Below, in pieces: positions 3,853-3,951 of a DNA stretch of 5,719 nt. The position numbers and the translations under genes are program-made. The stretch's first letter is position 1. Each line of letters opens with the position of its first letter. Under the pieces are notes generated by a model. It saw nothing but the letters and a program-made list of their open reading frames with translations. It had not been told where the DNA came from and did not search any database. The stretch is taken from the IMG/VR virus record IMGVR_UViG_3300029498_000035. One strand, written 5' to 3'. Origin of the DNA: a virus (Duplodnaviria > Heunggongvirae > Uroviricota > Caudoviricetes).

Positions 3853-3875
3853 AAAAAACCCGCCAGGCGGCGGGG
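3853..3875 (-). terminator. tR'-like intrinsic terminator about 65 nt downstream of the late promoter
   Basis: On the minus RNA, CCCGCC-GCCU-GGCGGG (plus 3859-3874) is followed by UUUUUUAUGAC (plus A-tract 3853-3858). Confidence 0.65.
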
Positions 3876-3908
3876 TGTAAAAAATCTTCTAACGTCAGGC
3901 ATAAAACG

Positions 3909-3951
3909 CCCATCGTTAGAGCAAATTTACCACAGATTCGGGAAAAATCAA
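3909..3951 (-). promoter_or_regulatory. late promoter PR' with lambda-type promoter-proximal pause element (qut region)
   Basis: On the minus strand, TTGATT (-35; plus 3946-3951), a 16-bp spacer, TAAATT (-10; plus 3924-3929), then TGCTCT and AACGATGGG (plus 3909-3917). Lambda PR' as I recall it is TAAATT-TGACTC-AACGATGGG, an almost identical -10 and pause-inducing block. It lies immediately after the Q stop codon, as in lambda. Confidence 0.6.

Follow-up and report, generated by a model that had tools for sequence, protein, structure and literature searches.

Late-Gene Antitermination in Lambdoid Phages

Three unrelated families of Q antiterminators are known: Q21 (PF06530), lambda Q (PF03589) and Q82 (PF06323) (PMC9388147). 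In the lambda Q family, the Q gene belongs to a cassette that also includes the promoter PR', a pause element and a terminator (PMC9388147), and the canonical steps of the lambda-type switch have been set out (PMC9388147, PMC9191641). Within the Q-loading complex, sigma region 4 is moved to a −35-like element (PMC9388147), and a T-N-Y-G consensus at +14 to +17 of the lambda transcript stabilises the scrunched pause (PMC9191641). RNA from such a promoter can also serve as a regulator: StxS, which derives from a PR'-tR' unit, binds Hfq and has rpoS and stx1B as its targets (PMC7547250).

A Probable Late-Gene Switch in an Escherichia coli Prophage

The DNA considered here is a stretch of 5,719 nucleotides, referred to in its entirety as the window, from a lambdoid prophage of E. 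coli. The minus strand at 3853–3951 very probably constitutes a lambda-type late-gene regulatory cassette that works with a Q protein of the lambda family. The cassette was previously uncharacterised; the class to which it belongs is well understood, and no new mechanism is implied. Its promoter and pause region is made up of the following elements, all on the minus strand, whose sequences and spacing are direct observations.

3946–3951, minus strand: −35 hexamer of PR', TTGATT, found by reading the sequence; it agrees with TTGACA at four of six positions and its position equals that of TTGACT in lambda.
3930–3945, minus strand: 16-nt spacer, TTTCCCGAATCTGTGG, the candidate Q-binding element by analogy with lambda.
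3931–3932, minus strand: TG of an extended −10, in the 3' part of the spacer.
3924–3929, minus strand: −10 hexamer of PR', TAAATT, identical in lambda and P22.
Between the −10 hexamer and the predicted start, minus strand: TGCTCT, a 6-nt gap of the same length as in lambda.
3919–3924, minus strand: TTGCTC, putative site of the −35-like element for sigma region 4, placed by comparison with lambda.
3909–3917, minus strand: predicted +1 (3917) and pause element AACGAT, followed by GGG; the block AACGATGGG equals lambda +1 to +9 at nine of nine positions.
3900–3903, minus strand: TATG at +15 to +18, a putative T-N-Y-G scrunched-pause consensus that predicts a pause at about +17.

A first-pass annotation of this DNA had proposed a lambda-like PR' with a sigma-dependent pause element. 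That reading is well founded, as the −10 hexamer, the length of the gap and AACGATGGG are identical to those of lambda, in which the layout reads TTGACT-17-TAAATT-TGACTC-AACGATGGG, and the combination is unique in the window: the composite TAAATT-N6-AACGATGGG occurs a single time, against 0.01 chance matches expected with two mismatches allowed. The two hexamers, separated by 16 nt, match the consensus at 8 of 12 positions, one below the threshold of 9 in a generic promoter scan, which therefore did not list PR'. Because of this score, the promoter call rests on homology to lambda and P22. The TG extension may offset the weakness of the hexamers, and the TTGATT sequence is kept in relatives whose Q proteins are 94–100% identical.

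Transcription is predicted to start at 3917 by the same homology, and the annotated 5' end of the late RNA of P22 falls on the equivalent base. The TTGCTC element matches the consensus at three of six positions; its lambda equivalent is TTGACT. AACGAT, the predicted sigma-dependent pause element, lies 6 nt past the −10 hexamer. The window reads TTAT at +14 to +17, which does not match T-N-Y-G, and it is the TATG one base downstream, at +15 to +18, that does.

The switch would operate as follows, where homology with lambda provides the position of the start, the pausing, the Q-binding site and Q-dependent read-through. Sigma70 RNA polymerase would start constitutively at PR' (+1 at about 3917), and sigma region 2 would re-bind AACGAT at +1 to +6, with the complex pausing and scrunching at about +16/+17. 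Q would bind its site in the promoter spacer and load on the paused complex together with NusA. The loaded Q would form a nozzle on the RNA exit channel, blocking terminator hairpins, and the polymerase would read through tR' (+44 to +65), the terminator that follows a small open reading frame (ORF) and several more, to reach the lysis genes. Without Q, as in a lysogen, transcription would stop at tR', with an RNA of about 65 nt as the by-product. The prophage itself could be defective.

The Q Protein and Its Candidate Binding Site

Directly upstream of PR' lies the gene for Q.

3957–4778, minus strand: Q antiterminator gene, 273 aa, with its TAG stop codon at 3957–3959.

The protein is intact and full length. 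It matches PF03589 with an E-value of 2e-49 and 166 bits, against a cut-off of 26.7, and aligns with the lambda Q structure 7UBM (E 2e-38) over residues 1–113 and 182–273, with an overall identity to lambda Q of about 40%. By its sequence it is a lambda-family Q, and its place in PF03589 makes a lambda-type mechanism well supported. A phage 82-type identity was considered and ruled out, as PF03589 is the lambda Q family and Q82 belongs to PF06323 (PMC9388147).

Compared with lambda Q, the protein contains an extra segment of 68 aa (residues 114–181) that resembles a zinc ribbon, bears a second CxxC...CxxC motif and sits just before the region aligned with the DNA-contacting arm of lambda Q. 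This segment is present in 10 of the 11 aligned family members, with lambda Q as the sole exception, so the Q of the window represents the common form.

Lambda Q binds DNA within the spacer between the −35 and −10 hexamers of PR'. The lambda spacer, TATTGAATAAAATTGGG, and that of the window, TTTCCCGAATCTGTGG, are unrelated in sequence. The latter is near-invariant among close relatives and is also found in HK225, mEp237, phiEt88 and many prophages of Enterobacter and Kluyvera, whose Q proteins are 52–61% identical to that of the window; it is absent from lambda, P22 and SfV. The spacer thus stays associated with its Q subfamily as far as about 52% identity, and for this reason it is the strongest candidate for the Q-binding element, a putative role that is drawn from analogy with lambda. 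On this basis, the specificity of the window Q is predicted to differ from that of lambda Q.

The pause block had been taken to support lambda-type Q specificity, a claim that does not stand. AACGAT is a −10-like element read by sigma70 and is uninformative on this point: with small variants, it is found across at least four unrelated spacer groups of the lambda family, namely lambda/P22/HK97, SfV/mEp460, a SEN34-like group with TTGCAA...GGC, and the group of the window, HK225, mEp237 and phiEt88. Because the element is read by sigma70 and the phages that share it have different spacers, it is no guide to which Q is used.

The Leader RNA and Its Terminators

Downstream of the predicted start, the window contains the following features.

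3891–3917, minus strand: 5'-terminal leader hairpin, +1 to +27, from the minimum-free-energy fold, with outer stem AACG/CGUU and inner stem GGGCGU/AUGCCU.
3875–3890, minus strand: A/U-rich linker, AGAAGAUUUUUUACAC, unpaired in the fold.
3853–3874, minus strand: tR', the hairpin CCCGCC-GCCT-GGCGGG (3859–3874) and T6 (3853–3858), from a terminator scan and the fold.
3533–3730, minus strand: small ORF of 65 aa, from the ORF list, the first gene downstream of tR'.
3519–3546, minus strand: second intrinsic terminator, GCCTTC-CGCAGT-GAAGGC and T6 (3529–3546) with the tail TTTTTTATTT, from the terminator scan; six pairs, four of them G:C.

The tR' terminator has a stem of six G:C pairs, a loop of four and a T6 tract, and spans +44 to +65. 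The leader, counted from +1 at 3917 to the end of the T-tract, is accordingly 65 nt long, the distance that had been estimated at the outset. A 67-nt RNA folds into the 5' hairpin, linker and terminator with −21.9 kcal/mol and a z-score of −2.45. Among 26 diverse leaders, the tR' helix is 97% paired and shows double-sided changes at four pairs, including swaps from G:C to C:G at two pairs in nine of the 26; its covariation score was reached by none of 500 shuffles, in counts that ignore sequence kinship. No other segment of the leader varies as much among close relatives as the linker. The leader also contains an ATG at +5 that opens a frame of 22 codons through the terminator. A leader peptide was rejected for lack of conservation of this frame, which reads ATG GGT TAA in lambda and is six codons long in P22.

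The stop codon of the 65-aa ORF lies within the second terminator, at 3529–3546, in keeping with the earlier claim that another terminator follows this gene. The ORF has a weak TrmB-like winged-helix match (PF01978, E 0.0026) that falls under the family cut-off, and its homologs are labelled in RefSeq as TrmB family regulators. The terminator scan returned 17 terminator-like sites in the window, where 5.3 were expected, and the sense strand of the late operon, from PR' to the end of the window, has at least six strong terminator-like hairpins, which fits a need for processive antitermination.

Leader Length in the Lambda Q Family

The first-pass annotation gave the lambda leader as about 194 nt, a figure reproduced here (about 193–194 nt from the lambda record by the same count), and described the 65-nt leader of the window as unusually short by comparison. 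The comparison across the family reverses this judgement. In 47 non-redundant lambda-family cassettes, the window included, the median leader is 66 nt, the usual range is 53–76 nt, and 42 are 80 nt or shorter. Only five are long, at 106, 128, 166, 194 (lambda) and 202 nt; one further long locus, at 217 nt, duplicates the 202-nt one and was excluded from the set. A scan of one genome per species gave 80 further loci, in which the promoter, pause element and first terminator were located.

P22 has a leader of 59 nt according to its annotation (late start at 37887, t late at 37917–37945). Downstream of the Q genes of other phages, the leaders are 58 nt in HK97, 55 nt in HK225, mEp237 and YeP2, 65 nt in SfV and mEp460, 62 nt in SEN34, 69 nt in SE1 and phiEt88, and 70 nt in RCIP0098. 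The Stx2a phage Stx2_95 has a Q of the Q21 family, and the homologous terminator lies less than 100 nt from its Q stop codon. Judged by these sequences, the leader of the window is the family norm and lambda is the outlier, which corrects the textbook picture: the 194-nt 6S leader of lambda is atypical within its own family, in which tR' commonly lies 55–75 nt past the start.

Three of the long leaders (L120, L152 and L166, between 166 and 217 nt) come from prophages of Dryocola, Symbiopectobacterium and Pectobacterium. They share with lambda 6S RNA (lambda record, 1902–2094) a common block, GAGGCGGCGCT...CCGCC...GGT.ACTTCGAC...CTCCAACCAT..CAGGC.GAGAGGTCTGC, part of which is also found at a further locus, L162. 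By its sequence, the long form resembles a short leader into which a conserved segment has been inserted. An Rfam scan of the lambda, P22, L120 and L152 loci gave no family over the leader or the internal block.

A 5'-Terminal Stem That Tracks the Pause Element

The first four bases of the leader complement a tetramer located at about +20 to +30, and across the 47 leaders the pairing tracks changes in the pause element. Leaders that start with AACG have CGTT in 24 of 26 cases. Those that start with AACA have TGTT in all eight cases, and CGTT in none. The nine AATG-start leaders have CATT in five cases, with G-U pairing in two more. The outer stem was tested by this alignment-free approach because RNAalifold, applied to 26 leaders, recovered the terminator alone and missed the 5' stems, whose inner parts lie in differing registers. 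In the same 26 leaders, the outer 5' stem is retained in 93% of cells.

The pause-element variant classes occur in loci of several genera, a distribution that suggests more than one independent change behind them. The covariation suggests selection at the RNA level on the 5'-terminal stem of the late transcript, within its first 30 nt or so, in the lambda Q family. The stem possibly serves in 5'-end protection. A literature search, which did not extend to older subscription literature, found no published description of covariation between the 5' stem and the pause element.

Distribution and Mosaicism

A query of 621 bases, from the 3' end of Q through the small ORF, is 100% identical to NZ_CP025913.1 and is covered to at least 80% in 1,067 of 20,395 E. 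coli records, including 780 with a match of 99% or higher. Evi, vB_EcoS-640R1 and Stx2_EH1910 are among the related phages; in Stx2_EH1910, an Stx2a phage, a Q-PR'-tR' cassette with 94% identity lies upstream of a methylase gene, tRNA genes and stx2. The cassette would control the lysis genes of a prophage present in about one in five complete E. coli genomes. As a near-identical copy would drive stx2 in at least one Stx2a phage, the specificity of its Q and its basal read-through are relevant to expression of the toxin.

Conservation of the cassette as a unit was observed at two levels. Among 80 viral contigs with Q proteins 94–100% identical to that of the window, the promoter, pause element, 5' hairpin and terminator stem are near-invariant and the leader is always 64–66 nt long; the DNA past the T-tract is mosaic, switching among unrelated modules. 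The same layout is present in P22 (P late, a qut-like site and t late), HK97, SfV, mEp460, HK225, mEp237, SEN34, SE1, YeP2 and phiEt88, and in most of the 80 prophage loci from other species.

In Stx2a phages, the tR' hairpin (3840–3874, minus strand, in the window; L177 1301–1334), the small ORF, the methylase gene and the tRNA genes are found with about 91% identity behind a Q of the Q21 family. The same tR' module thus follows two families of Q, which indicates that recombination junctions cluster at tR', between the Q cassettes and their cargo.

In five close relatives (L041, L045, L068, L074 and L079), an insertion of about 900 bp follows immediately after tR', about 250–1150 nt past the Q 3' region. 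Its boundary is marked by another copy of the T-tract region of the terminator, and the arrangement resembles the insertion of a moron at that site.

Further along the late strand are two phage tRNA genes at 2122–2198 and 2208–2283 (minus strand), a tRNA-Arg (TCG) and a tRNA with a CAT anticodon that was called as Met; the latter is presumably the ileZ-type tRNA of Stx phages. Related Stx phages have three tRNAs at the same site (Met, Arg, Arg). Downstream of the tRNA genes is a tandem array of three copies of STnc100 (RF02076) at 1200–1388, 1453–1628 and 1664–1857 (minus strand), two strong and one weak (139, 132 and 30 bits), each ending in a strong terminator. The array occupies the position that the stx genes have in Stx phages.

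Alternative Readings of the Locus

The hairpin at 3853–3874 lies about 100 nt past the stop codon of Q and might mainly serve to end the early Q transcript, with the promoter-like sequence an inactive relic in a defective prophage that has no late switch. The sub-consensus hexamers of the promoter would suit such a relic. However, the three elements of the cassette (promoter, pause element, terminator) stay linked at the same spacing across Q proteins down to about 35–40% identity, and the cassette is also present in the plaque-forming phages P22, HK97, HK225 and mEp237. Q itself shows no sign of decay, being intact and full length, and AACGATGGG and the spacer are near-invariant in the 80 contigs amid mosaic flanks, which is unlike a relic. 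This reading is therefore regarded as highly improbable.

A working lambda-type switch, the preferred reading, would also produce a terminated leader in lysogens, which had been suggested to be a small RNA product. Such an RNA is plausible by precedent, the precedents being lambda 6S RNA and StxS rather than anything specific to this leader. It is a further step to regard the 65-nt RNA as a trans-acting, Hfq-type regulator in lysogens, similar to StxS. StxS, from PR'-tR', regulates rpoS and stx1B, and antiterminated phage promoters have been proposed as a source of small RNAs, with short late leaders listed for lambda, 21, phi80, 82 and P22 (PMC7547250). The leader has the shape of a small RNA, in that an unpaired AGAAGAUUUUUU linker joins a 5' hairpin to a U6-tailed terminator (−21.9 kcal/mol and z −2.45, as above), and the abundance of the cassette in E. 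coli (the 1,067 records with at least 80% of the query, 780 of them at 99% or more) points the same way. However, the linker, where a seed would presumably be located, is the least conserved part, and the best-kept parts are explained by their roles in DNA as promoter and pause element. Against the Sp15 Q-stx1A interval, blastn-short gave a sole match, an 11-nt terminator fragment with an E-value of 0.017, and apart from the generic GCGGGTTTTTT, neither StxS nor the Sp15 Q-stx1 interval shows homology to the leader. An Rfam scan of the window in E-value mode gave no match at 3853–3951, and a full-text literature search with four 20–21-mers of the leader found none of them. Within the window, the best duplex between the linker and a target (−17.9 kcal/mol) is no better than for shuffled linkers (mean −18.1). 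Taken together, a StxS-like role is unlikely.

HnrS (EcOnc10–12), a 66-nt multicopy small RNA of prophages (PMC13502914), was also considered and rejected, as it has a different locus and a different sequence: it is encoded on the opposite strand, past the lysis genes. By the coordinates of Tree et al. (2014), EcOnc11 lies at 1946819–1946867 of Sakai (minus strand), where it follows an endopeptidase gene and runs antisense to the late genes, and a reading of this region showed no resemblance to the window leader.

The Sp15 locus (L178 985–1015, minus strand) has a strong hairpin with a T7 tract (CCCGCCGATGCGCGGGTTTTTTT) about 50–70 nt past the Q stop codon. With the start placed by length alone, this hairpin would fall inside the region reported to give the 258-nt StxS precursor.

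The two RNA-level proposals can be combined, such that the 65-nt RNA is a StxS-type regulator and its 5' stem is selected as RNA, for example for 5'-end protection of the leader and the late mRNA. That both are true is unlikely; if they were, late leaders would be a family of structured RNAs and not mere spacers.

Comparison with Known Systems

The StxS unit of Sp5 and Sp15 resembles the locus in that RNA from a constitutive late promoter is ended at tR' in lysogens (PMC7547250), which is predicted for the window. It comes from a cassette with the Q gene ECs_2975, and differs in the length of its transcript, 258 nt processed to 74 nt, and in the sequence of the leader, which has no homology to that of the window.

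The PR'/qut/tR' region of lambda, the source of 6S RNA, shares with the window the Pfam family of Q, the TAAATT hexamer, the 6-nt gap and AACGATGGG at +1 to +9, as well as the AACG/CGUU stem at the 5' end and an intrinsic terminator, which Q overrides in lambda and would override in the window by analogy. It differs in its leader of about 194 nt, against 65 nt in the window, and in its spacer, which is 17 nt long and unrelated to the 16-nt spacer of the window. Sigma region 4 would find a weaker −35-like element in the window, and the window Q has the 68-aa zinc-ribbon segment in addition. The comparison with lambda PR' that the first-pass annotation had proposed thus upholds identity of the −10 hexamer, the gap and the 9-mer, but not of the spacer or the leader length.

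The P late/t late region of P22, served by the gene 23 protein, also belongs to the lambda-family Q cassettes; its leader is short, and it has the −10 hexamer of the window and AACGATGG. Unlike in the window, its Q (nearly that of lambda) and its spacer are lambda-like, the extra zinc ribbon is missing, and the terminator follows the 5' stem with hardly any linker.

HK225 and mEp237 are the closest characterised phages that have the spacer motif of the window, TTTCCCGAATCTGTG. Together with related enterobacterial prophages, they have the TG-extended −10 and AACGATGGG, followed by leaders of 53–58 nt. They differ from the window in having another terminator hairpin, a shorter linker and TTTACT in place of TTGATT at −35, while the Q proteins of HK225 and mEp237 are of the same long form as that of the window and 55–61% identical to it.
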